8,790 bases of DNA from a virus (taxonomy: Duplodnaviria; Heunggongvirae; Uroviricota; Caudoviricetes): the IMG/VR virus record IMGVR_UViG_2703718806_000011, positions 1-8,790 of that record; one strand, written 5' to 3'. Positions 1 through 8,790 of this stretch are shown here, piece by piece; position 1 is the first letter of the stretch; each line of letters begins with the position of its first letter. Position numbers and translations under genes: made by a program. The notes under the pieces were generated by a model. It had not been told where the DNA came from and did no database searches. It saw nothing but the letters and a program-made list of their open reading frames with translations.

Positions 1-114
1 AACACGCGCATAATTTTCGGCTGTCATGCTGTCCGGCTGCGTGGCCTGTTCGTCAGCCTGCTGGCTGATTCCGGCGACGCGGCGGATTAATCCCAGTATT
101 TCGGCTTCTGTCAT
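1..114 (-). CDS. Hypothetical protein, N-terminal 38 codons only (MTEAEILGLIRRVAGISQQADEQATQPDSMTAENYARV...); runs off the window start
   Basis: ATG at 114-112 with a G-rich stretch (GGGGG) 5 nt upstream; open frame to position 1. Too short in-window to appear in the ORF track. Sits downstream of the capsid gene, so possibly another head-module gene (inference). Confidence 0.35.
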   Translation of the reverse strand, partial: MTEAEILGLIRRVAGISQQADEQATQPDSMTAENYARV

Positions 115-255
115 TGTGCCCCCATCGCGCTGGTGAAGAAAACAAGCTCAGATTTTTTGTAAAGAATCTGTCACGCTAAAAGATGTCGAACAAAAATTAA
201 CCACAATCATCATCTTTTTTGCATCAACAACATTAAAAACAACAGGTTACACACA

Positions 256-350
256 TGATGATGATGACGATAAAATCACAAAAATGCGCTTTTTTCCGCG
301 CCGCCCGCCCCGTGTTCAGGCCCACCCCACCAGGAGGACCCGCAAAAAAG
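256..350. repeat. Copy 1 of a ~95-bp direct repeat (core 281-350, about 93% identical to 2818-2888), with a (GAT)n-like trinucleotide stretch at one end
   Basis: Aligned by eye against 2793-2888. Shared core AAAATGCGCyTTTTTCCGCGCC...GCCCCGTGTTCAGGCCC(A/C)CCCCACCAGGAGGACCCGCAAAAAAG. Confidence 0.6.
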
Positions 351-365
351 GCGGCTGGTGCCGCC
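341..365 (-). terminator. Rho-independent terminator just after the capsid gene stop
   Basis: GC stem GGCGGC-tggt-GCCGCC (350-365), followed on the minus strand by TTTTTTG (349-343); lies 6 nt beyond the stop at 372. Confidence 0.6.
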
Positions 366-371
366 TTGTTG

Positions 372-2261
372 TCATAGTGAATCGGTACCACCTGATTTGA
401 CCATACCGCGATAATCCAGAGCTGCCACACCTGCATCAATACGGACTTTCCAGGCCACGCCGTCAACGATAAAACCTTCCTGCTGTTCAAGGTAAGGTTC
501 GTCATTACCATCAAGATAAGCCACCTCGATTGTGTCCGTTCCCTGTGCGGAAAGCATGTACCATTGTTTTTCGCTGATATCATCAAGGCGGGGATCGACG
601 ATGATATCAAGTAGCTTGTGATACGGGTTAAAGATCCCGCTGTTTTTATCAGCCCCGAAAGGTGCGGTTGAGTTAATCATCTGCAACGCGCGATCTTCCA
701 GTGCTGCCGGAACTAAAAGGAATTTAGGCGCAATATTCAGCACTTCGCCATTTTTGTCCTTCTGTGTGCGCATCAGGTGACGTGCTGCACTAAGTCCCGG
801 TGTTGTCAGTCCTGCTTCAATCAGGTTGCTGTGTTTTTTGTCAAACAGCGTTATTCCGTCAGAAAGTTTTACGTTGCCTGTAAGCACCAGATTAACCAGA
901 TTTCCCACCGTTCTTGATGCTGCACGGCCCATAGCCATTGGCACCGTTGATAACTGATCAAGGTCATCATTGATTATCGCCTGGCGGGTAATGCTGAAAA
1001 TATTCCCGTAAGTAGCCAGCGCGATGGGTTCACCGCGATCGCTGGTGGTGATGTATTTATATTCTGCCCCTTCCGGCACTTTGTTTAACGTTGAGAAGCC
1101 ATTCATACCAACGCGGCGGGCTTCCCGGAAGTTTGAAAGGGAACCTTTTTTCGTCCACTGGCGGAATGTTTCGCCACTGTGCTCCCAGCCTGCAAGCACT
1201 GATTTTTCAGCGCCACCAGCAAGGATATCGGTAAAATCGCTGCTGCTGTGGGTGAATGCCGCGTTTACTATCTGCGAGCGTGTGCCGTAGCTGCCCGTGC
1301 TTATACCACGATGGGTTAATGATGCCTGTGCCATATCGAAAAGGCTCATCATGGCGTAAGGATTACCGCGTTCGGCCCGTTCGTGACCAAGACGCGCATT
1401 AAGCCCCTGACGCATGGCATCGCCGGTTATATTGCCGTTATCCGTGTACGCGTAGTAAAGATTTGCGGGGGTGGTTTTGTTTGTTGGCGTTGATTCTTTA
1501 CCCATAGCGAGTAAAAGGCGTTCGCGTGCATTCTCAACGCTACATTCTGAATCCGCAAGACAACTTATAGCCAGGTCGTTATATCTTCCGTTGAAGGTGC
1601 CAAACAATTCACGGATTCCGTTAAGTCGTTCCTGTTCGCCACTGCCAGTTTTCTGGCTGATCATGCTTTTAATTTTTTCCGGCATATTTGAAAAATCTCC
1701 GATTCGTTTTGATTCAATTCGGGCCATTGCTGTAATCGCGGGTATAACCTCATCTGCGAAGCCGTTAGCCTTACACTCATTGCCATCCATCCAGGTTTCC
1801 GCCTCCATCATGGAGGTGATCTCCTGTTTGCTCCTGCCCGTTCTTCCGGCATAGGTTTCTGCCATCGTGTCGCCCAGCTTGTCCATCAGATCAGCAAAGC
1901 GGCGAACGTCGCCCGACACTCCGGCAGTAACACCACGGGGGGCATGTATCATCATCATCGCGTTTTCAGGCATAACGATGTGATCTCCACACATGGCAAT
2001 AAACGACGCCATAGAAGCCGCCATGCCTTCAATGTGTACGATTTTTTTTGCCGGATGATTTTTCAGGGCGTTATAGATAGCCAGCCCTTCAAAGATGTCG
2101 CCACCAGGTGAATGAATGCTCAGATGGATTTCAGACGCATTACCACACGCGTTGATCTCGTCAGTAAGTGCCGATGCTTTTACACCGTACCCGCCGATCT
2201 CGTCATAAATGCGCACATAGACAACATCTGCCATAGCCTTAATGGAAAACCATGTTTTCAT
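372..2261 (-). CDS. Prohead serine protease (ClpP family) fused to HK97-fold major capsid protein, 629 aa
   Basis: N-terminal ~170 aa aligns with ClpP around the catalytic residues: IHSPGGD, GMAASMASFIA (compare ClpP GQAASMGAFLL, catalytic Ser) and MMIHAPRG (compare ClpP VMIHQPLGG, catalytic His). The C-terminal ~400 aa has the length and composition of an HK97-family capsid protein. RBS TAGGAG 8 nt upstream of the ATG at 2261. Confidence 0.85.
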   Translation of the reverse strand: MKTWFSIKAMADVVYVRIYDEIGGYGVKASALTDEINACGNASEIHLSIHSPGGDIFEGLAIYNALKNHPAKKIVHIEGMAASMASFIAMCGDHIVMPENAMMMIHAPRGVTAGVSGDVRRFADLMDKLGDTMAETYAGRTGRSKQEITSMMEAETWMDGNECKANGFADEVIPAITAMARIESKRIGDFSNMPEKIKSMISQKTGSGEQERLNGIRELFGTFNGRYNDLAISCLADSECSVENARERLLLAMGKESTPTNKTTPANLYYAYTDNGNITGDAMRQGLNARLGHERAERGNPYAMMSLFDMAQASLTHRGISTGSYGTRSQIVNAAFTHSSSDFTDILAGGAEKSVLAGWEHSGETFRQWTKKGSLSNFREARRVGMNGFSTLNKVPEGAEYKYITTSDRGEPIALATYGNIFSITRQAIINDDLDQLSTVPMAMGRAASRTVGNLVNLVLTGNVKLSDGITLFDKKHSNLIEAGLTTPGLSAARHLMRTQKDKNGEVLNIAPKFLLVPAALEDRALQMINSTAPFGADKNSGIFNPYHKLLDIIVDPRLDDISEKQWYMLSAQGTDTIEVAYLDGNDEPYLEQQEGFIVDGVAWKVRIDAGVAALDYRGMVKSGGTDSL

Positions 2262-2452
2262 AGCCAGGCTCCTAACGTTGCCTGGTACCAGTATTCAACC
2301 GCGCTGCGTGTGATTTGTCCTTTCGTGGGCACTGGCATACCCGGGTGATTATCTTTGATGAACTGCTGATAGCGTTCGATCTTCTCCATAGTTCCGGCGT
2401 CTATGTGCACAGTGGCACTTTTATCCGGCTTTCTGGTGTTGTTCTCTGGCAT
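2258..2452 (-). CDS. Hypothetical small protein, 64 aa from the favoured start at 2452 (ORF track start 2485 gives 75 aa); translationally coupled to the capsid gene
   Basis: GGAGG lies 7 nt upstream of the ATG at 2452, whereas the ATG at 2485 has no Shine-Dalgarno. The stop overlaps the capsid start (ATGA). Predicted strand-helix-helix pattern (ATVHIDAGTMEKIERYQQFI...) suggests a small DNA-binding or assembly factor (inference). Confidence 0.5.
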   Translation of the reverse strand: MPENNTRKPDKSATVHIDAGTMEKIERYQQFIKDNHPGMPVPTKGQITRSAVEYWYQATLGAWL

Positions 2453-2647
2453 AAATCCGCCTCCGTTTTGATTAACGGGCATCATTATTGATCGATAAAA
2501 GTAATAGATAAATCATTTTCTACCTGAAAATCAGATTATGTTTTTTCTGATTATTCTCAGAAAGGCAAAGTTATTGACGCATTTTTGCCATTGAAGCAGT
2601 ATTAAGACTCGTCATCCTGGCGATAAAAACTCCTTTGTCGTGTAAAA

Positions 2648-2683
2648 GCGCCTCCGGTAACAGCAATCGGGGGCGCTTTTTTT
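2648..2683. terminator. Intrinsic terminator, strongest in the plus orientation and probably bidirectional
   Basis: Stem GCGCCTCCG (2648-2656) / CGGGGGCGC (2668-2676) with one G-U pair, followed by TTTTTTT (2677-2683) on the plus strand and preceded by AAAA, which gives UUUU on the minus strand. Confidence 0.5.
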
Positions 2684-2792
2684 GCGCCTGTTTTTTTGTA
2701 AATGCTTTCGGGAACGCTCCAGTGATGAACAAAAAACAACCTGATTCGACACTAAAATTTTTTATTCCTCAATATATCAATAACTTATAGTG

Positions 2793-2888
2793 GTGGTGAT
2801 GGTGCCATAAAAATCAAAAAATGCGCCTTTTTCCGCGCCCCTCCGCCCCGTGTTCAGGCCCCCCCCACCAGGAGGACCCGCAAAAAAG
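2793..2888. repeat. Copy 2 of the ~95-bp direct repeat (pairs with 256-350); carries a C8 tract at 2859-2866
   Basis: Aligned by eye with 256-350. The two copies differ by one indel and a few substitutions, so plus-strand reading frames through them are not conserved, arguing the element is non-coding. Confidence 0.6.
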
Positions 2889-2904
2889 CCGGATTGCTCC
2901 GGCT
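2880..2904 (-). terminator. Rho-independent terminator after the SSB-like gene
   Basis: Stem AGCCGGA-ttgc-TCCGGCT (2887-2904) followed on the minus strand by a T-run (complement of 2881-2886); lies 16 nt beyond the stop at 2920. Confidence 0.6.
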
Positions 2905-2919
2905 TCTGTCACTCGTTGC

Positions 2920-3177
2920 TTAAAACGGTATGTTATCCCCGTACGGATCATCGTTACCCGCCACGCTCACCAGTTCGCCTTTGTGGTGTTTTGCCAGTGC
3001 GTCGGCCTGTCTGCCAAACGCCAGGACGGATAACCACATCGTCGCCGTTCCGTCATCGGCCTGGCTGCACGGCAGGGGGATAGCCATACCCGCCATCGCC
3101 ATTTGTGTACCCTTGCTGGTGGTCTTTAACTGTGGGTCAGCCACCAGCCGCCCGTAAGCGGCTATCTGTGCTGTCAT
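2920..3177 (-). CDS. Truncated SSB-like OB-fold protein, 85 aa, ending in an SSB-type acidic C-terminal tip (...DDPYGDNIPF)
   Basis: The N-terminal part resembles the start of E. coli SSB (IAAYGRLVADPQLK vs VILVGNLGQDPEVR; WLSVLAFGRQADALAKHHKGELVSV vs [26 protein letters not shown]), and the last residues DNIPF match the SSB tip DDDIPF. Start overlaps the upstream gene stop (ATGA). Confidence 0.6.
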   Translation of the reverse strand: MTAQIAAYGRLVADPQLKTTSKGTQMAMAGMAIPLPCSQADDGTATMWLSVLAFGRQADALAKHHKGELVSVAGNDDPYGDNIPF

Positions 3178-3443
3178 GATTCCACCTCTCCGGTTTTAAT
3201 GTTGATGGTTGTTACCTGTTCCGCTTCGGCAATCTCCCGTTCTGTCAGCGTGGCAAAGTTTGCCGCCGCTGTGGTCATGAATGCGCTTATCAGTTCGGGA
3301 TGTTCCTTCGCGTATCCTTCCCCCGCGTGGCGGTCTATTACCCTGATTGCTACCTTTAAGGCGTGCTCTGTCATGTCTAACGCTTTATATTTTGGCTCTG
3401 TTCTGTCTCTGCGCATTTTGGTTATCTCCTCACTCATGCTCAC
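3174..3443 (-). CDS. Hypothetical protein, 89 aa (GTG start at 3443; alternative ATG at 3437)
   Basis: Plausible composition; GAGG lies 7 nt upstream of the GTG, inside an ori iteron; coupled to the downstream SSB-like gene by a 4-nt overlap. Confidence 0.5.
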   Translation of the reverse strand: MSMSEEITKMRRDRTEPKYKALDMTEHALKVAIRVIDRHAGEGYAKEHPELISAFMTTAAANFATLTEREIAEAEQVTTINIKTGEVES

Positions 3444-3630
3444 TTTTGCGCCTCACTTTTTAAAGCGTCTCGCTTCGTCTCACTTGATATTTTTGATGTT
3501 TTTATGTGCATGTTTCATAAGGATTTTTTACTCCTCACTTTTTGGGGTATATATACGTTGAAAAGTGAGGAGTTCAGGGGGTTTTTCGTGCAATTCCTCA
3601 TTGTCCTCACTTTTGCGCCTCACTTTTTAC
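3429..3630. repeat. Putative origin of replication: iterons of consensus CCTCACTTTT around an AT-rich core
   Basis: The 23-bp unit CTCACTTTTGCGCCTCACTTTTT occurs at 3439-3461 and 3606-3628. A perfect 12-bp inverted repeat CTCCTCACTTTT (3531-3542) / AAAAGTGAGGAG (3561-3572) flanks a TATATATA spacer. Partial copies at 3429-3435, 3477-3486 and 3596-3603. AT-rich stretch 3481-3530. Lies immediately 3' of the replication gene. Confidence 0.55.
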
Positions 3631-5036
3631 AGAGGGCCTACATCATCACCGTCGATATAAATAACCCCGTCTTTTTCCAGCTTGCGTAGCCAGCGGCTGA
3701 AGTTTTTCATTTCGTACCCCAGCTTTTTCATATCGTCACGTAACAGCGGGATCGTGCACTTGTCGCCGTGCTGTGTGCGTGACCGGATACATCCCCATAG
3801 CGCAGCATGATTCTCCGTCTTGTTGCCAGCCTCTTCGATGCGCTCCAGTTCAACGGGAGGACGCGGCTTATCCACCACCACCAGCGACGTGATTAACTCC
3901 CCGTCAGCGTCGGTAAAAAGCTCCACCACCCGCAAATCATAGGCAGCCTCTTTGAGTTCCTCCGCGTCCTTCATTTTGGTGCATGAGATAACCAGCGCTT
4001 CGCTTCCTGCGTCCTCCCTGCGTATCCGGTATTCAGCGTCCAGTGATGCACGAAATGCACTGGAACCACGCGCCCCCTTTGTTTCATCCTTGCCGGAATG
4101 GTGAACCACCAGCACCGTAGCCCCTGTGCGCCGTTTAAGCTCGTCACAACCACGGATAAATGCCCCCATGTCGCGGGAGTCATTTTCATCATTGCCGCCA
4201 AAGCAACGCGCCAGCGTGTCCAGAATAATCATGCGAACAGGTTTACCCGTTTCCCTCTCCACCTGACTGGCAGCAATAACCAGTTCATCAACATCAAGCG
4301 GGACAGCCGGAAAGATGGGACGGTTTACCAGATACAGATTTTTCACCTGCTCACCGTGCACAACCTCCCAGGCTTTTACACGACGCGGAACGCCGATACC
4401 GCCTTCACCAACCACATAGAGAACAGCGCCATGCGCCACCCTGCGGCCTCCCCACTGGCGGCCCGTGGAAACGTGACACGCCCACGATCCGGCAAGGAAT
4501 GATTTATAGGAACCGCTCGCCCCGTATATGCTGCAAAGCGACGATGCCGGAATAATCCCCTTTACCACGTAATCAAGCTGTGTGTCGTATCCGGTAGATC
4601 CAACGCTCATCGGTAGCTTGGTTTTTCGCTGGGGGATTTTTTTCATGACCAGGCTTTCCCCGCGTTCCCATGCCTCCCTAAGCCGTGGAAGCTGGTCGCT
4701 CCATTCCTCCAGCAATTCGAAATTTTCAGAAAGTAGCCGCGCCTCCTGGACTCCGGCGATCGCCAGTTTCGTGGCGATGGTTAACAGCTGCGGCTCTTCA
4801 ATATTTCCGGCGCGTATCACCGTCGCCCTGTATCGCCCATCATCAACAATCTGGAGGTTATCCAGTTCGCTTAACTGATAACGCCCCAGATAAACGGGAG
4901 GGACTGGATCGCCTGCTTTTTTGGCCTGTGCAATGATGTAATGCTCTGCGAATGAGTGAGCATCAATACCCGCAAAAATAATCGCATCGGTGTATTTATC
5001 TTTCGGTAATCGTTTTACGTTCGGTGCCAGTTTCAT
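3627..5036 (-). CDS. Replication protein with a RepA/DnaB-like (RecA-fold) ATPase domain, 469 aa; primase/helicase-type satellite replication initiator
   Basis: P-loop-like IYGASGSYKSF, Walker B-like RMIILD, and HHSGKD, as in RepA-like helicase domains (from memory, unverified). AGGGG lies 6 nt upstream of the ATG at 5036. Start overlaps the upstream gene stop (ATGA). Confidence 0.8.
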   Translation of the reverse strand: MKLAPNVKRLPKDKYTDAIIFAGIDAHSFAEHYIIAQAKKAGDPVPPVYLGRYQLSELDNLQIVDDGRYRATVIRAGNIEEPQLLTIATKLAIAGVQEARLLSENFELLEEWSDQLPRLREAWERGESLVMKKIPQRKTKLPMSVGSTGYDTQLDYVVKGIIPASSLCSIYGASGSYKSFLAGSWACHVSTGRQWGGRRVAHGAVLYVVGEGGIGVPRRVKAWEVVHGEQVKNLYLVNRPIFPAVPLDVDELVIAASQVERETGKPVRMIILDTLARCFGGNDENDSRDMGAFIRGCDELKRRTGATVLVVHHSGKDETKGARGSSAFRASLDAEYRIRREDAGSEALVISCTKMKDAEELKEAAYDLRVVELFTDADGELITSLVVVDKPRPPVELERIEEAGNKTENHAALWGCIRSRTQHGDKCTIPLLRDDMKKLGYEMKNFSRWLRKLEKDGVIYIDGDDVGPL

Positions 5037-5332
5037 TTTTTACCCCTGAATCCGTTAATCATGGTTTTCAGCTTCTGGATGTTTGCCCGTGCCCTGGCGT
5101 TGCTGGTGGGCACGTTATGCGGCGCGGTCTGTACCAGAGAAAAATCACGCCGGAACTGATAAACAGGCATCACGCAATCATATTCGTAACCTTCACGGCG
5201 GTAAGTTACGCACCGTCCCGCCACGCCCTTAATCATTACCGTGCCGCCGTACTGGTCGCGGTAAATATCACCGCGCGTAAATTTAGGGTGAGTGTTGCCA
5301 CTGGCAGTTAAGCCAGAATATTTAAGTTTCAT
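5033..5332 (-). CDS. Hypothetical protein, 99 aa; resembles small conserved proteins found beside replication genes in P4-like prophages
   Basis: ORF-track protein with GDIYRDQYGGTVMIKGVAGRCVTYRREGYEYDCV, probably beta-rich. GGAG upstream of the ATG at 5332. Last gene of the small-gene operon before rep. Confidence 0.6.
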   Translation of the reverse strand: MKLKYSGLTASGNTHPKFTRGDIYRDQYGGTVMIKGVAGRCVTYRREGYEYDCVMPVYQFRRDFSLVQTAPHNVPTSNARARANIQKLKTMINGFRGKK

Positions 5333-5337
5333 TATTT

Positions 5338-5571
5338 TTATTCTCCGGTGTGCTGTTCGTTATATCTGTCGTGCAATTGGTCTATTTCTTGTAGTTCCAT
5401 TATTACAGGCTCAAGAAGCGTTATTAATGCCGTGACAATTCTTGATTTTTGTTTGTCGCGTTCATTGTCGCCAAGTGTTTCAAGCCATATGCGCAATATT
5501 TCCAGCATGTTTTCACTGTGAGAAAGTGCAATAAATGCGCGGTCTATTGTTTCAAGGTAAATATCACGCAT
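5338..5571 (-). CDS. Hypothetical small protein, 77 aa, predicted helical
   Basis: AGGGGG then TAAT before the ATG at 5571; the upstream gene stop TAA is 1 nt before the start. Confidence 0.6.
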   Translation of the reverse strand: MRDIYLETIDRAFIALSHSENMLEILRIWLETLGDNERDKQKSRIVTALITLLEPVIMELQEIDQLHDRYNEQHTGE

Positions 5572-5572
5572 A

Positions 5573-5794
5573 TTACCCCCTGCCAGACATTTTTCTTAAA
5601 TCAGATTCAGCAATATATTCCGCATAATCGGCAGTAATATTCAGTACGTCTATTCCAGTTGATTTATATTCTTTCGTGCCAAGTAAGAAAAATGCCGCTC
5701 TTATCAGTTCGGATATTGACGAAAGCGCATCACCTGCATCATCAGGCGCACCATCAAATTCCTTTTTCAGGGAATTAAAACGATCATCACGCAT
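5573..5794 (-). CDS. Hypothetical small acidic protein, 73 aa from the favoured start at 5794 (ORF track start 5842 gives 89 aa)
   Basis: The internal ATG at 5794 is preceded by the G8 tract that also encodes the C-terminal glycines of the upstream gene, and overlaps that gene's stop (ATGCGTGA). The longer N-terminal extension is hydrophobic and has no Shine-Dalgarno. Confidence 0.5.
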   Translation of the reverse strand: MRDDRFNSLKKEFDGAPDDAGDALSSISELIRAAFFLLGTKEYKSTGIDVLNITADYAEYIAESDLRKMSGRG

Positions 5795-6008
5795 AACCCC
5801 CCCCATTTTCACAATCAGCAACAAGAATATTTTTAGCGTCATTCAGCGACCGCGTGGCGGTGTATCGGATACATTCCAGGGCGAACGATGTGTATTCTTC
5901 CCGTTCTTCCTTTCGTGCAAGCTCTGCTGTGCATTCAATATCAATAAGCGCGTGCATCAGCGTAGTGAGTGCGGCGGCGGCTGCGTCCGGTGTGGTTTTA
6001 TTGCACAT
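5787..6008 (-). CDS. Hypothetical small acidic protein, 73 aa from the favoured start at 6008 (ORF track start 6062 gives 91 aa)
   Basis: GGAGGGG lies about 4 nt upstream of the ATG at 6008; the ATG at 6062 has no Shine-Dalgarno. C-terminus ...ENGGGYA. Confidence 0.5.
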   Translation of the reverse strand: MCNKTTPDAAAAALTTLMHALIDIECTAELARKEEREEYTSFALECIRYTATRSLNDAKNILVADCENGGGYA

Positions 6009-6228
6009 GTACCCCTCCGCATTTTTTTTCGTTAGAAATAAGCGTTCTTCTTTCCTGTTCATCGCTCAGGAATACGCAGACCTCACCGCTAAGGCGTTTA
6101 AGTAAGCCGATGATTGCCCCTGATTCGCTGTCGGTCATCATGCCAGGGTAATCCTCTGCCAGTGCGCAAATAACTTCGATTTGGTGGGCGCGTTCTGCTG
6201 CCTGTTGTAGTGTGATTTCCTGGCTCAT
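5998..6228 (-). CDS. Hypothetical small protein, 76 aa from the favoured start at 6228 (ORF track start 6285 gives 95 aa)
   Basis: AGGAGG lies 8 nt upstream of the ATG at 6228, which overlaps the upstream gene stop (ATGA). The longer form would begin inside the upstream gene with a Cys-rich, implausible N-terminus. Confidence 0.55.
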   Translation of the reverse strand: MSQEITLQQAAERAHQIEVICALAEDYPGMMTDSESGAIIGLLKRLSGEVCVFLSDEQERRTLISNEKKCGGVHVQ

Positions 6229-6419
6229 AAGCCTACCTCCTGACGAATACGGGCGGCAAATACAGCAACACAACCGGACGGGCAACGGCTACGCGCTTCG
6301 CGTTCCGTCCAGGCGGTTACGTGGATGATTTGAGATTCTCCGGCACTCAGTGCCAGAAAACGCCACATAAAGGCAGTTTGTGTGTGTACAAGGTGTGGTA
6401 TATGATTTACGGCAACCAT
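6225..6419 (-). CDS. Small protein, 64 aa, first gene of the early operon; possibly Icd-like (host cell-division inhibitor family common in P4-like prophages)
   Basis: Strong RBS GAGGAG 6 nt upstream of the ATG at 6419. The Icd-like assignment is from memory of the family pattern (aromatic-R-F-L-A-L core) and is unverified. Confidence 0.55.
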   Translation of the reverse strand: MVAVNHIPHLVHTQTAFMWRFLALSAGESQIIHVTAWTEREARSRCPSGCVAVFAARIRQEVGL

Positions 6420-6450
6420 AACGGCTCCTCGTTTACGTTGTTGGTTAGAA

Positions 6451-6491
6451 GCCCTGCGAGTGGTAACGACACTTGCGGGGCTTTGCTTTTT
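6451..6491 (+). terminator. Terminator-like hairpin plus U-tract on the plus strand; role unclear
   Basis: GCCCTGCGAGTG (6451-6462), loop GTAACGA, CACTTGCGGGGC (6470-6481), then TTTGCTTTTT. Two G-U pairs are allowed only in the plus-strand RNA; in the minus-strand RNA they become C-A mismatches. Confidence 0.3.
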
Positions 6492-6508
6492 ACTGTACCT
6501 ACTGATAT

Positions 6509-6552
6509 TGTACGTACGTAACGGAAATGATAATAGGAGTTACGTACGTACA
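6509..6552. promoter_or_regulatory. Palindromic operator: perfect 14-bp inverted repeat TGTACGTACGTAAC / GTTACGTACGTACA, arms separated by 16 bp
   Basis: Arms at 6509-6522 and 6539-6552. Each arm contains the self-complementary 10-mer TACGTACGTA, with copies 30 bp centre to centre. Overlaps both the early promoter and the RHH translation start. Confidence 0.6.
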
Positions 6553-6558
6553 TGTCAA
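6530..6558 (-). promoter_or_regulatory. Near-consensus sigma70 promoter for the minus-strand early operon
   Basis: On the minus strand: -35 TTGACA (6558-6553), 17-bp spacer, -10 TATTAT (6535-6530). Predicted transcription start near 6523, about 100 nt upstream of the first operon gene at 6419. Confidence 0.55.
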
Positions 6559-6743
6559 CATTAAAGCGCGATAAATCGCCACGCGGTGAGGGATGGTCTC
6601 CAACCTTCCAAATCAGAATCAGTAAAGAGCTACGCCAACAAGTAAATGAAGCTGCAACTTCTGACGGTCTAACCCTTGGTAACTGGTTTAAAGAATTAGC
6701 CAGGGCAGAACTAAAGCGGCGCGGCATAGAACCCAAAGGGTAA
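6552..6743 (+). CDS. Ribbon-helix-helix (Arc/CopG-like) DNA-binding protein, 63 aa; candidate repressor of the early operon
   Basis: Strand-helix-helix pattern FQIRISKELRQQVNEAATSDGLTLGNWFKELARAEL. The only convincing plus-strand gene, divergent from the early operon. AGGAG lies 12 nt upstream of the ATG, which sits inside the operator and the spacer of the opposing promoter. Confidence 0.6.
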   Translation: MSTLKRDKSPRGEGWSPTFQIRISKELRQQVNEAATSDGLTLGNWFKELARAELKRRGIEPKG

Positions 6744-6834
6744 TTACATTGCCCACCAGCCTGATAGCGGCTATCATTCCCGTGCTTATGTTTGGGATCA
6801 CATACACATAAGGCGCAGCAGGTTAATTGTTCAG

Positions 6835-6867
6835 AAAGGCGGCTCCATATCGGGGCCGCTTTTTTTA
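6835..6867 (+). terminator. Rho-independent terminator downstream of the RHH gene; may also stop convergent alpA transcription
   Basis: AGGCGGC ... GCCGC stem followed by TTTTTTT (6861-6867). Confidence 0.5.
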
Positions 6868-7007
6868 TGCCTGAAAAACCCCAATTTTGTTGTTTTTCAG
6901 TTTCACCAGGGCGAACGAATCCCCGCCCACGTTCGGGCGCATATTCAATCTTCATGGTTATATCTCTGTATTAGTGGATGTGTGGCGACTGTGTGCCGCC
7001 AGTCTTT

Positions 7008-7196
7008 TTAGTGAACTGCCTTGCAGCTATCCTTCCAGGCCAAAACCTCAGATAAAGACCAGCCAACAGAACGCCCGCCAAGTTTACGACGTGATGGGAA
7101 TTGTCCGGCCTTTTCCAGGCGGTAGCGGCATGAGCGGCTAAGGCCTGTTAGCTTTTCGCATTCTTTTTCACGTATAAACCGATCAGTGCTTAACAC
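7008..7196 (-). CDS. alpA: AlpA-family (excisionase-like, MerR-type) phage transcriptional regulator, 62 aa, GTG start
   Basis: ...EKLTGLSRSCRYRLEKAGQFPSRRKLGGRSVGWSLSEVLAWK matches the AlpA helix-turn-helix pattern. AAGGGGG lies about 4 nt upstream of the GTG at 7196. Confidence 0.8.
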   Translation of the reverse strand: MLSTDRFIREKECEKLTGLSRSCRYRLEKAGQFPSRRKLGGRSVGWSLSEVLAWKDSCKAVH

Positions 7197-7247
7197 TATT
7201 GCCCCCTTTCGTTTCTTAAAGAGTCATCAGGTGTCTTATTGTGTCGT

Positions 7248-7276
7248 ATTGTTCCCGCTAGTGTGGTGAATGGCAA
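7248..7276 (-). promoter_or_regulatory. Candidate sigma70 promoter for alpA
   Basis: On the minus strand: -35 TTGCCA (7276-7271), 17-bp spacer, -10 AACAAT (7253-7248). TATTGT-containing direct repeats at 7231-7255 overlap the -10 and start region. Confidence 0.3.
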
Positions 7277-7345
7277 ATGTTGATGTCGTATGGTTTACAG
7301 AAAGAGGAATAATCAGGATAAAATCATTTAAATTCATGTTAATAC

Positions 7346-7378
7346 AAAGGCATAAAATCTTGTTTTATGCCTTTTTTC
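7346..7378. terminator. Hairpin terminator between int and alpA, probably bidirectional
   Basis: GGCATAAAA-tcttg-TTTTATGCC (7349-7371), followed by TTTTTT on the plus strand and by TTTGTATT on the minus strand. Confidence 0.45.
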
Positions 7379-7468
7379 GCACGCTTTAACGCGTAATTCG
7401 CTAATGTATAAAAAACCAGTTAACCAATAAAAATCAGTAACTTATAAATCTGTATTCTTTTTGGCCTC

Positions 7469-7518
7469 TTGTTCGTGATTGTGTCACGTTGTTGCACATT
7501 GTTTCACGTTGTATCTGT
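7469..7518. repeat. Five direct repeats with exact 10-bp phasing (TTGTnnCACG-like) just 3' of int
   Basis: TTGT at 7469, 7479, 7489, 7499 and 7509; units TTGTTCGTGA, TTGTGTCACG, TTGTTGCACA, TTGTTTCACG, TTGTATCTGT. Confidence 0.4.
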
Positions 7519-7560
7519 GCACTTATCCAGTATGTGCATACTGAAAAAACACGAAAAAAA

Positions 7561-8790
7561 TTATTTTATTCTGGTTACTGGTAGCGTGGTTACGTTTTCA
7601 TGTGCTCCCGCCAGTATCCCTAACCGCTCCGTCCACATATCCAGCGCATCACGTTTCGCATCGAGATAACGGGAGTGGTTATAGACTCGTTGCATCCCTG
7701 GCATCTGATGACCTGTAAGCTGCTCCACGACGTGAGGATCCACGCCCAAATCATTCAGCATCGTTGTAAAGGTGCGCCGGATGTCATGCAATGACCATTG
7801 AGGGTGTTTTAGCCTCCTGTGCGCTAATCTGCCGTACTGCGATACGCTGGCCTCCTGTTTCACTTCCCCCAGTAATAAGCCCGTGTGCCTGTTCTGGTCC
7901 ACCAGCCGCGTGACGAACGGCAGGATCGCTTCCGGTATGGGCCGGAATATTGCAACCTTCGTTTTGCTGTGCTCCTTCGGAACGGTCCATAGCATTTCGG
8001 TAAAATCCCACTCGCTGATCTCCGATAACCTCAGTTCTACCGTCCTGGCTCCGAAGACAATCAGGAGGCGGATTAACGCGACGTAGTAAGGAGAAAATAT
8101 TTTTTTATCCAGCGCCTGCAATAACTCGCCCAGTTCTTTGGTGCTTAAGACACGTTCGCTTATATCCGGTTTTTTCCCAACGTCCGCCACGTTCAGATCG
8201 TCCAGAACGTTGCTGATTGCATAGCGCCGCCTACGGCAGAATTTAAGCGCCTGTTTGCATGTCTGTAGCAAGAATCCGGCAGTAACAGGTGTTCGCTTTG
8301 CCACCTGATCAAAACAGGCCAGCCAGTGCCGTAGCTCGCATTTATCCAGCGGCATAGCACCAATTTTGATGATTATGTTTTTATTGATCCGGCTTTTCAG
8401 TGATTCGTAATCTGTGCGCTTTTCCTTTGCGTACGACTCAAGCCAGTAGGTGAGCGCATCGCCAACCGTTGCAGGCTTTAACGCTTCCTGCATGGTGTAA
8501 TTCAGTTCATAGCGTGGATTTTTCCCCTCAGCCAGCCATGCGCGACACTGTGCGGCTTTTTCCCTGGCTGCTTTCAGGCTCAGATCGGGATAATTTCCCA
8601 GCTTAACGCGTTCAGGTTGTGTCCCTCTTCCCGTTCCGGCCCTGTATGTGAAATACCAGGTTAAAAGGCCGCTGGTTGAATGCCTGACGCTCAGGTTTCC
8701 ACCGTCATTAAGAAAGGCTGTTTTTTGGGCGGGTGTGCCGTTGATTTTCCTTAGCTGTGTGTCACTCAGTTTGTTAAGTGCTCTGCTCAT
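7561..8790 (-). CDS. int: P4-type tyrosine integrase (site-specific recombinase), 409 aa
   Basis: N-terminal arm-binding-type region (LSDTQLRKINGTPAQKTAFLNDGGNLSV...), and C-terminal catalytic motifs HDIRRT (HxxR) and GHQ...VYNHSRY (catalytic Tyr). The ATG is the last three bases of the window (8788-8790). Confidence 0.9.
   Translation of the reverse strand: MSRALNKLSDTQLRKINGTPAQKTAFLNDGGNLSVRHSTSGLLTWYFTYRAGTGRGTQPERVKLGNYPDLSLKAAREKAAQCRAWLAEGKNPRYELNYTMQEALKPATVGDALTYWLESYAKEKRTDYESLKSRINKNIIIKIGAMPLDKCELRHWLACFDQVAKRTPVTAGFLLQTCKQALKFCRRRRYAISNVLDDLNVADVGKKPDISERVLSTKELGELLQALDKKIFSPYYVALIRLLIVFGARTVELRLSEISEWDFTEMLWTVPKEHSKTKVAIFRPIPEAILPFVTRLVDQNRHTGLLLGEVKQEASVSQYGRLAHRRLKHPQWSLHDIRRTFTTMLNDLGVDPHVVEQLTGHQMPGMQRVYNHSRYLDAKRDALDMWTERLGILAGAHENVTTLPVTRIK

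Follow-up and report, generated by a model that had tools for sequence, protein, structure and literature searches.

A cos-like packaging site between two predicted terminators and a putative capsid promoter at the replication-capsid boundary of an EcCICFT073-type phage satellite

How the capsid genes of a phage satellite are kept apart from the replication genes upstream, and what switches them on, was the question raised by positions 2,453 to 2,904 of an 8,790-nucleotide stretch of caudoviricete DNA (IMG/VR record IMGVR_UViG_2703718806_000011, positions 1 to 8,790; hereafter the window), in which nearly all genes lie on the minus strand. A preliminary description pictured this interval as two tandem terminators in front of a capsid operon lacking a usable promoter, whose expression would depend on an activator or on antitermination. 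The present analysis pointed to a different arrangement: the region 2453-2919 is probably the boundary between the replication and capsid operons of a phage-inducible chromosomal island (PICI) of the EcCICFT073 type, and it would double as one of the two packaging sites of the island and carry a putative capsid promoter of its own.

The minus-strand terminator proposed behind the replication genes at 2880-2904 was recovered as hairpin T1 (2882-2904), which starts 16 nt past the stop codon (2920-2922) of the SSB-like open reading frame (ORF) and consists of an AGCCGG stem, an AGCAAU loop and CCGGCU, followed by six U residues. Its minimum free energy (MFE) was -17.6 kcal/mol (z = -2.7), with 3 of 200 shuffled sequences folding as well. 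A simple pattern scanner did not call T1 in the window, while it called the identical hairpin that follows the replication module of CFT073; the miss was therefore presumably caused by the extension of the stem into the U-run. Among the related islands the position of T1 was conserved, while the stem sequences differed (e.g., AGCCGGGATTTTCCCGGTT and GGCCGGAGAAATCCGGC).

The sequence between the two hairpins, missed in the preliminary description, turned out to be homologous to the cos regions of helper phages. In a BLAST comparison of the intergenic region with phages, 2719-2886 matched 1720a-02 and CP-1639 with approximately 93% identity and, more weakly, mEp460, phi458 and Stx phages. In 1720a-02 and CP-1639 the match falls between the endopeptidase gene (Rz position) and the gene at the terS position, and the matches in mEp460, 1720a-02, phi458 and VT1-Sakai sit between the Rz/lysis genes and terS/terL on the late-gene strand. 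The second copy in the window, cos1 (147-348), shared 88-91% identity with an interval of VT1-Sakai and several Stx2 phages that is bounded by Rz and a DUF1441-type terS, and a 112-nt direct repeat (D1, 256-367 and 2794-2905, 77% identity) links cos1 with cos2. Both copies and most related cos sites contain the heptamer GGGTCCT, which we take to be cosQ. When aligned to the end junction of lambda (NC_001416), the window reads GGGTCCT..CCTGAACACG GGGCGGAGGGGCGCGG against GGGTCCT..CAGGTTACG/GGGCGGCGACCT/CGCGG; the cosN part is ACG GGGCGGAGGGG CGCGG in cos2 and ACG GGGCGGGCGG CGCGG in cos1, the lambda counterpart being GGTTACG/GGGCGGCGACCT/CGCGG. The cosN of the window is 1-2 nt off the lambda length and that of cos1 equals the cosN of phage 1720a-02, while the gap from cosQ to ACG/GGGCGG is 21 nt on the minus strand in both copies (22 nt in lambda). 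The cosB-like flanks of cos1 and cos2 were approximately 90% identical overall to the phage flanks. Having the cosQ spacing, a cosN-related sequence and homologues at the cos position of phages with a GpA-type terminase, the interval 2719-2886 is, to judge from its sequence, a lambda-type cos site and not a spacer; T1 abuts its cosQ. The nick positions within the cosN of cos2 were placed by analogy and are putative.

An explanation of the 112-nt repeats as a structured RNA element (a small RNA or a 3'-UTR module) instead of a DNA packaging signal was rejected as very improbable. The minus strand does form GC-rich hairpins, but copy 1 folded no better than its shuffled versions (z = -1.0), and the repeats could be aligned with the cos of lambda and with correctly placed cos intervals of phages. 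The search against all Rfam families at E <= 1 produced only chance-level matches in the window (a Brucella sRNA, a yeast snoRNA and a ctRNA on the T2 hairpin alone), for which reason a known RNA was discarded as an explanation.

The terminator behind the capsid gene holds the same position relative to the cosQ of cos1 as T1 does relative to the cosQ of cos2, albeit with an unrelated stem; both consist of a GC-rich stem-loop and a U-tract past a stop codon, as is typical of intrinsic terminators. A GC-rich hairpin (dG <= -9) with a T-run abutting cosQ was found in 36 of 52 distinct island contexts, with several different stems across the islands, in contrast to none of five phage cos sites. 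Since the latter have the T-run with only a weak hairpin of the A/T type (GATAAYCATTATC), the islands appear to have built terminators onto a phage-derived T-run before cosQ, a design that appears to be undescribed in the literature searched.

The second hairpin, noticed previously at 2648-2683, was confirmed and named T2. Its GC-rich stem of 9 bp (2648-2656/2668-2676, loop of 11 nt) is followed on the plus strand by T7 (2677-2683), an overlapping second hairpin (2672-2676/2684-2688) and a second T7 (2691-2697), the whole folding with an MFE of -27.1 (z = -4.3; 0 of 200 shuffles as good). On the minus strand the fold was weaker (MFE -18.1, z = -2.5) and the tail was UUUUAC, so that T2 has the complete make-up of an intrinsic terminator on the plus strand and a partial one (4 U) on the minus strand. 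The observation that the best U-tract lies on the plus strand was thus correct, as was the absence of a plus-strand gene upstream of it: the ORF list of the window contained no plausible plus-strand ORF ending at T2. The corresponding site of the sister lineages, past cosB and ahead of the promoter block described below, holds another terminator, this one on the sense strand (GCCGGAttttttCCGGC + T7).

The plus-strand strength of T2 might alternatively mean that its main role is to end a short plus-strand RNA (~75-90 nt) that would run away from the capsid promoter, complementary to the leader on the sense strand, with a candidate start at TTGACG (2574-2579), 18 nt, AGTATT (2598-2603). The two successive hairpin/T7 signals would fit such an RNA, TTGACG is retained in all variants of the lineage, and some sister islands have a better -10 (AATATT). 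Against this, the -10 in the window is poor and no Rfam family was matched; furthermore, the segment is confined to the lineage of the window with too little variation for a structure test. Overall, we consider such a role unlikely. The 3' half of T2 (2666-2690) is also 88% identical over 25 nt to 6849-6873 (ATCGGGG.CGCTTTTTTT..GCCTG), a plus-strand terminator after a 63-aa ORF; the likeness may be due to chance or to a shared origin.

The statement that 2486-2645 holds no good sigma70 promoter was borne out in that the scanner called no consensus-grade one, but a conserved sub-consensus promoter-like block (2484-2550) lies at the edge of this interval, which would serve as the capsid promoter. 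Its 17-nt spacer between -35 and -10 includes GATC (2490-2493), and the T-run followed by an A-run upstream of the -35 resembles an UP element. The consensus of 27 sequences more than 12% apart was attAAtCt.tTTTTctGATaaAaAt.a.TTTAct TACCACTTTTA..GATCAAT.AT, and the conservation spanned ~65 nt in these diverged sequences. Capsid loci were collected by a motif scan of viral contigs, which gave 83 stretches, and by a scan of genome contigs with the small ORF as query, which gave only three loci. The 87 motif loci were made up of the 83 viral-contig stretches and L009, L010, L012 and L014; of these, three lay in unrelated surroundings and had matched by chance. The ClpP-capsid fusion was present in 86 of the 86 screened loci bearing the block (including the window and L001) at 50-100% identity, while AlpA was either 50-98% identical or undetected in the stretch examined. 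Being linked to the capsid fusion whatever the AlpA allele, the block belongs to the capsid module.

The surroundings of the block supported the claim of insulation, as did the conserved position of T1. Among 64 distinct upstream contexts, half (32) had a sense terminator whose end lies 49-53 nt before the motif and for which six or more different stems were recorded; the lineage of the window, about 20 contexts, had T2 139 nt upstream of the motif, and about a dozen had no terminator, with an opposite-strand ORF upstream instead. L034, L061, L087 and L091 lack the intervening cos, and their T1 adjoins the block directly. In L012-L014 the recurrent order was the SSB stop, T1 with another stem, cosQ-cosN, an unrelated cosB, a sense-strand terminator and the block; the terminator structure was kept in relatives despite the change in sequence. 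The capsid operon thus appears both insulated and self-promoted.

Several observations weigh against this arrangement. Both promoter hexamers fall short of the consensus, with TTTATC, 17 nt, AATAAT in the window (8/12; 3/6 + 5/6) and TTTACT, 17 nt, AATnAT in most relatives, all below the threshold of the scanner. The central 20 nt of the block (part: TAYYACTTTTAKYGATCAAT) served as the search pattern, so the fact that they do not vary among the 83 viral-contig loci follows from the way these were found and proves nothing. Independent support comes from the flanks and from loci retrieved with protein or BLAST searches: A2 and T6 of the -10 were invariant outside the search pattern, the block is present in Kluyvera and Trabulsiella loci found by protein search, where an opposite-strand ORF lies upstream, and it is nearly identical in the BLAST-found Escherichia coli islands (L012-L014). 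The efficiency of T2 on the sense strand is doubtful because of the short minus-strand U-tract. Finally, ACG and CGCGG of cosN stand 10 to 12 nt apart in the lineage of the window, and many sister copies of cos2 have AGGTACT in place of GGGTCCT (e.g., L024, L028, L046 and L057), on account of which cos2 may be impaired or specialised. AGGTACT was also found at other, cos1-type, positions and in a live phage and may represent an alternative cosQ allele rather than decay. Since the same variants recur in such places, decay of cos2 was not concluded from them.

The same variants bear on whether cos2 is a passive relic of prophage recombination, with cos1 alone being used and T1 and T2 merely marking the ends of neighbouring units. 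Such a history would agree with the relatives that lack cos2 and in which T1 abuts the promoter block, with the variable cosQ and cosN, and with the unreduced transfer of EcCICFT073 after deletion of its cos2 (PMC6092414). It agrees less with the cos2 of the window, which keeps an intact cosQ and 93% identity over 168 nt of a live-phage cos including the cosB flank, or with the wide occurrence of the upstream cos in E. coli islands, in two unrelated cosB flavours. Related islands usually carry two or three cos cores. We therefore hold the relic to be the less likely fate of cos2, albeit one with some weight.

According to the preliminary description, the capsid operon would lack a usable promoter and would be expressed only once a dedicated activator, either AlpA or a helper protein, has switched on a cryptic one. 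The weak -35 (TTTATC, 3/6) and the lack of a called consensus promoter are what such a model would predict, and a conserved 25-nt stretch upstream of the -35 together with the unusually conserved spacer might be a protein site; moreover, AlpA is the published master activator of such islands (PMC6092414). However, the block is identical across islands whose AlpA proteins are 60-98% identical and persists where AlpA was undetected in the stretch examined, and the stretch upstream is UP-like, an element that would need no activator. An allele-specific AlpA site is argued against by the fact that the block travels with the capsid gene while AlpA varies, which makes control through sigma-70 alone, a host factor or the small protein of the module itself the likelier option. 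It also counts against an activator that lambdoid helpers are not known to encode any late activator besides Q. Activation by a dedicated protein, AlpA included, is regarded as doubtful. As for specific sites, a search for one common to the region upstream of alpA and to the capsid block yielded only short A/T-rich likenesses at chance level (I17, D3), and a comparison of the block by eye with the LexA, CRP, PhoP, DnaA and IHF consensus sites gave no convincing match.

Antitermination fared worse. Polymerase arriving from the replication operon, or modified by AlpA in a Pseudomonas-like manner, would have to pass both T1 and T2 to reach the capsid genes. AlpA-family antiterminators exist, and two or three terminator-like signals stand in series on the sense strand; in the capsid leader of CFT073, furthermore, a promoter-like site is followed by a 14-bp hairpin and a U-run. 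Yet in Kluyvera and Trabulsiella the block is kept beside an upstream opposite-strand ORF, from which no co-directional transcript can enter, so that read-through is not needed. Features expected of Q-, N- or put-like antitermination were lacking as well: no antitermination RNA was matched in Rfam (chance matches only at E <= 1), and the leader in the window has no U-rich terminator; a protein-based loading site may nonetheless be present. Such a requirement for capsid expression is thus unlikely, and we consider it improbable that read-through feeds the capsid genes. Attenuation-type control may nevertheless operate in other variants because of the CFT073 leader. In the latter (L008 5383-5445), T1, a second terminator, TTGCTC, 16 nt, a perfect TATAAT and a hairpin with a 14-bp stem and U-run lie upstream of the capsid module, the hairpin before the first gene being either a promoter-proximal terminator or a palindromic operator.

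The first gene of the capsid operon also had to be redrawn. Its start, previously set at 2485, is the ATG at 2452-2450 behind the Shine-Dalgarno (SD) sequence GGAGG, which makes the untranslated interval longer than had been assumed. This start was conserved in alignments across genera and corresponds to a 195-nt CDS annotated by PGAP in L013, and the end of the 64-aa ORF overlaps the start of the capsid gene (ATGA). The protein shows a strand-helix-helix pattern (..TVHID.. followed by two helices), and a single-sequence AlphaFold model gave two helices with a pLDDT of 65. Only six close homologues were present in the protein database, which made a deep alignment impossible; a profile search of PDB, a Pfam scan and Foldseek did not support a ribbon-helix-helix fold. 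A role as a ribbon-helix-helix regulator, possibly of its own operon, would be compatible with the pattern and the model but is a guess.

From the sequence, the following course of events is proposed, in which termination at T1 and T2 in vivo, cutting of cos2, the transcription start and the control of the promoter are all predicted. T1 would end the AlpA-dependent replication operon directly past the SSB-like gene. cos2 would act as a DNA-level signal copied from a lambdoid helper, with a cosB flank reaching to ~31 nt before the start position of the phage terS, and the helper terminase would cut it, starting or ending the packaging of satellite concatemers. T2 would close the cos interval by stopping leftover sense transcription and, more efficiently, antisense transcription toward cos, after which the promoter block would start the capsid operon (the 64-aa ORF and the ClpP-capsid fusion) with a transcription start near 2477.

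The cos flanks raise the question of how the helper terminase would recognise the satellite. Experiments established two functional cos sites in EcCICFT073, in which cosQ and cosN are lambda-like and cosB is not (Fillol-Salom et al., 2018, PMC6092414; also PMC6739421), and the island protein Rpp retargets the helper TerS to the island cosB (Fillol-Salom et al., 2019, PMC6739421; reviewed by Murialdo and Feiss, 2022, PMC9026076). The RppA of CFT073 was identified through its match to the RppC crystal structure (PDB 6hlk relative), and a tblastn search with this protein and a phage TerS found no homologue in the window or in L001. The 93-aa ORF after cos1 was considered as an Rpp candidate and rejected, since it had no PDB match and the true RppA is another CFT073 gene that is absent from the window. 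With no Rpp beside cos and with phage-like flanks, in place of a cosB unlike that of the helper, the window does not look like an Rpp-dependent island. The TerS proteins of the VT1-Sakai and 1720a-02 types, both DUF1441-type, are 77% identical, with almost all differences in the N-terminal DNA-binding part and an identical C-terminal half, which suggests that each cos of the window may be matched to a different helper TerS allele. Tentatively, such a satellite might be packaged by two distinct helper lineages through its two phage-derived cos sites without an Rpp-like adaptor, with the cosQ-abutting terminators excluding transcription from the packaging sites; this is offered as a possibility rather than as the expected outcome. 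A two-helper cos arrangement without Rpp, if it exists, appears to be undescribed in the literature searched. In L014 (NZ_CP044312.1) one of three cos cores is inverted and the capsid gene is followed by a terS of the Nu1 type, in place of which L013 has a DUF1441-type terS; the late module is highly mosaic, as these differences demonstrate.

The element as a whole is an allelic variant of the Gram-negative PICI family of satellite EcCICFT073. The best genomic match to the window was E. coli 2012C-4431 (93.8%), where the element sits between phoQ and roxA; the assignment follows from the phoQ-side location and the module order, both shared with EcCICFT073. It has the int and alpA genes, a replication module with a probable origin, unidirectional genes, a size of ~10 kb and a specific att site, as known for Gram-negative PICIs, among which helper-phage induction and transfer were published for EcCICFT073 only (PMC6092414). 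The architecture was also matched by L012 (NZ_CP148328.1), a circular molecule of 10,790 bp. It was deposited as a non-mobilizable plasmid; besides int, alpA, a primase and the ClpP-capsid fusion it carries a tail-assembly gene, a DUF1441 TerS-like gene and two cos sites, and most likely it is a satellite excised as a circle.

Table 1. Features of the 8,790-nt window.
Feature	Position	Strand	Remarks
93-aa ORF after cos1	1-112		phrog_1561, unknown function; no Pfam or PDB match
cos1, second copy of cos	147-348	-	cosQ 335-341, ACGGGGCGG 313-305; different cosB-like flank
Terminator after capsid gene	344-365	-	GGCGGCaccaGCCGCC + U6, abuts cos1; fold -14.8 kcal/mol, z = -4.9
ClpP-like prohead protease/major capsid protein fusion, 629 aa	372-2261	-	Pfam Phage_capsid_4 1e-54, CLP_protease 3e-33; RefSeq product name in L001
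64-aa ORF, first capsid-operon gene	2258-2452	-	ATG 2452-2450, SD GGAGG 2464-2460; phrog_4934, unknown function
Conserved promoter-like block	2484-2550	-	-10 AATAAT 2489-2484, -35 TTTATC 2512-2507, UP-like A/T-rich 2513-2550
T2, predicted bidirectional terminator	2648-2697	both	plus: two overlapping hairpins, each followed by T7; minus: weaker, UUUUAC
cos2, complete phage-like cos interval (cosQ, cosN, cosB-like flank)	2719-2886	-	93.5% to 1720a-02, 93.4% to CP-1639
cosN-like core of cos2, ACG/GGGCGGAGGGGC	2832-2855	-	ACGGGGCGG at 2851-2843; aligned to lambda
cosQ heptamer GGGTCCT of cos2	2873-2879	-	identical to the lambda heptamer in the alignment
T1, predicted intrinsic terminator	2882-2904	-	stem 2887-2892/2899-2904, U6 at 2882-2887
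SSB-like ORF, 85 aa, last replication-operon gene	2920-3177	-	Pfam SSB E = 7e-8, phrog_44
RepA-type helicase	3627-5036	-	iterons 3439-3632 next to it
Small early genes, several		-	behind near-consensus promoter 6558 to 6530
AlpA	7008-7196	-	
Tyrosine integrase	7561-8790	-	

Some further properties of the window were recorded alongside. The SSB-like ORF has 85 aa against a 140-aa SSB (423 nt) annotated in the closest genome copy and in other islands, which suggests an internal in-frame deletion; the acidic ..DNIPF tail is retained. The iterons 3' of the helicase gene include CTCACTTTTGCGCCTCACTTTTT twice (96% identical, 167 nt apart) plus shorter copies and enclose a 22-nt inverted repeat at 3530-3573; the array is probably the replication origin of the satellite. 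The best promoter match of the window, TTGACA, 17 nt, TATTAT on the minus strand, is the early promoter, which is flanked by perfect 14-nt inverted repeats TGTACGTACGTAAC (6509-6522/6539-6552) and has a divergent 63-aa Arc/HicB-like ORF (6552-6743) beside it, so 6509-6558 looks like an operator of the early operon. The leader of the latter contains a 15-bp hairpin (6448-6484) that scored as a terminator on the plus strand only. An ORF equal or close in size to the 93-aa ORF after cos1 (282-285 nt) closes the island on the phoQ side in L001 (8832-9113) and CFT073, and in L012-L014 it stands last in the late module; these ORFs were matched by size and position.

Taken together, the hairpins of the preliminary description were confirmed and its interpretation gained support in part; the interval was recast as a packaging site flanked by predicted terminators instead of an empty insulator, and a regulatory map was obtained for the late (capsid) module of widespread satellites of E. 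coli and other enterobacteria, in the order terminator, cos, terminator, promoter block, small ORF and capsid gene. Literature searches on late-operon control in EcCICFT073-type islands returned nothing on terminators or late promoters. The map makes testable the shielding of cos from transcription, the helper range conferred by two cos flavours without Rpp and the control of the capsid promoter. The current understanding of PICIs is not overturned, and the locus is largely an ordinary operon boundary of a known kind of satellite.

In common with the lambda pR'-tR'/Q system and with operon I of the Staphylococcus aureus pathogenicity islands (SaPI), the structural or late genes would stay off, through terminators or repression, until the cycle of the helper begins; the likeness is functional at most, as no Q-binding/pause element, nut/put RNA or LexA box was recognised in the window. 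EcCICFT073 shares with the window the phoQ-side integration, the order int, alpA, early genes, replication, SSB, capsid module and small terminal gene, two lambda-type cos sites with conserved cosQ and cosN, and an identical T1 hairpin. It differs in that its replication-capsid boundary consists of T1 and a second terminator with no cos; both of its cos cores, one in inverted orientation, follow the capsid module. Furthermore, EcCICFT073 carries RppA and a phage-unlike cosB, in contrast to the ~90% phage-like flanks and the lack of an Rpp or TerS homologue in the window, and it encodes a lambda-E-type major capsid protein with a decoration protein in place of the ClpP-capsid fusion.

Similarly to lambda cos, the sites in the window consist of GGGTCCT and, about 25 nt on, ACG/GGGCGG..., then CGCGG and an A/T-rich segment, oriented toward the head genes, while the 12-nt cohesive-end sequence differs, with 10-12 nt between ACG and CGCGG and an uncertain length, and cosB is unrelated to that of lambda. 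The strong GC-rich hairpin with a U-run that abuts cosQ in the window has only a weak A/T counterpart in lambda. In cos, a close likeness was seen to the prophages with DUF1441-type TerS (1720a-02, CP-1639, VT1-Sakai and Stx2), with 88-93% identity over cosQ, cosN and the terS-side flank. However, their cos is placed within a Q-antiterminated late operon, from Rz to terS and with no strong terminator, whereas in the satellite it lies between terminators with non-terminase genes following it.

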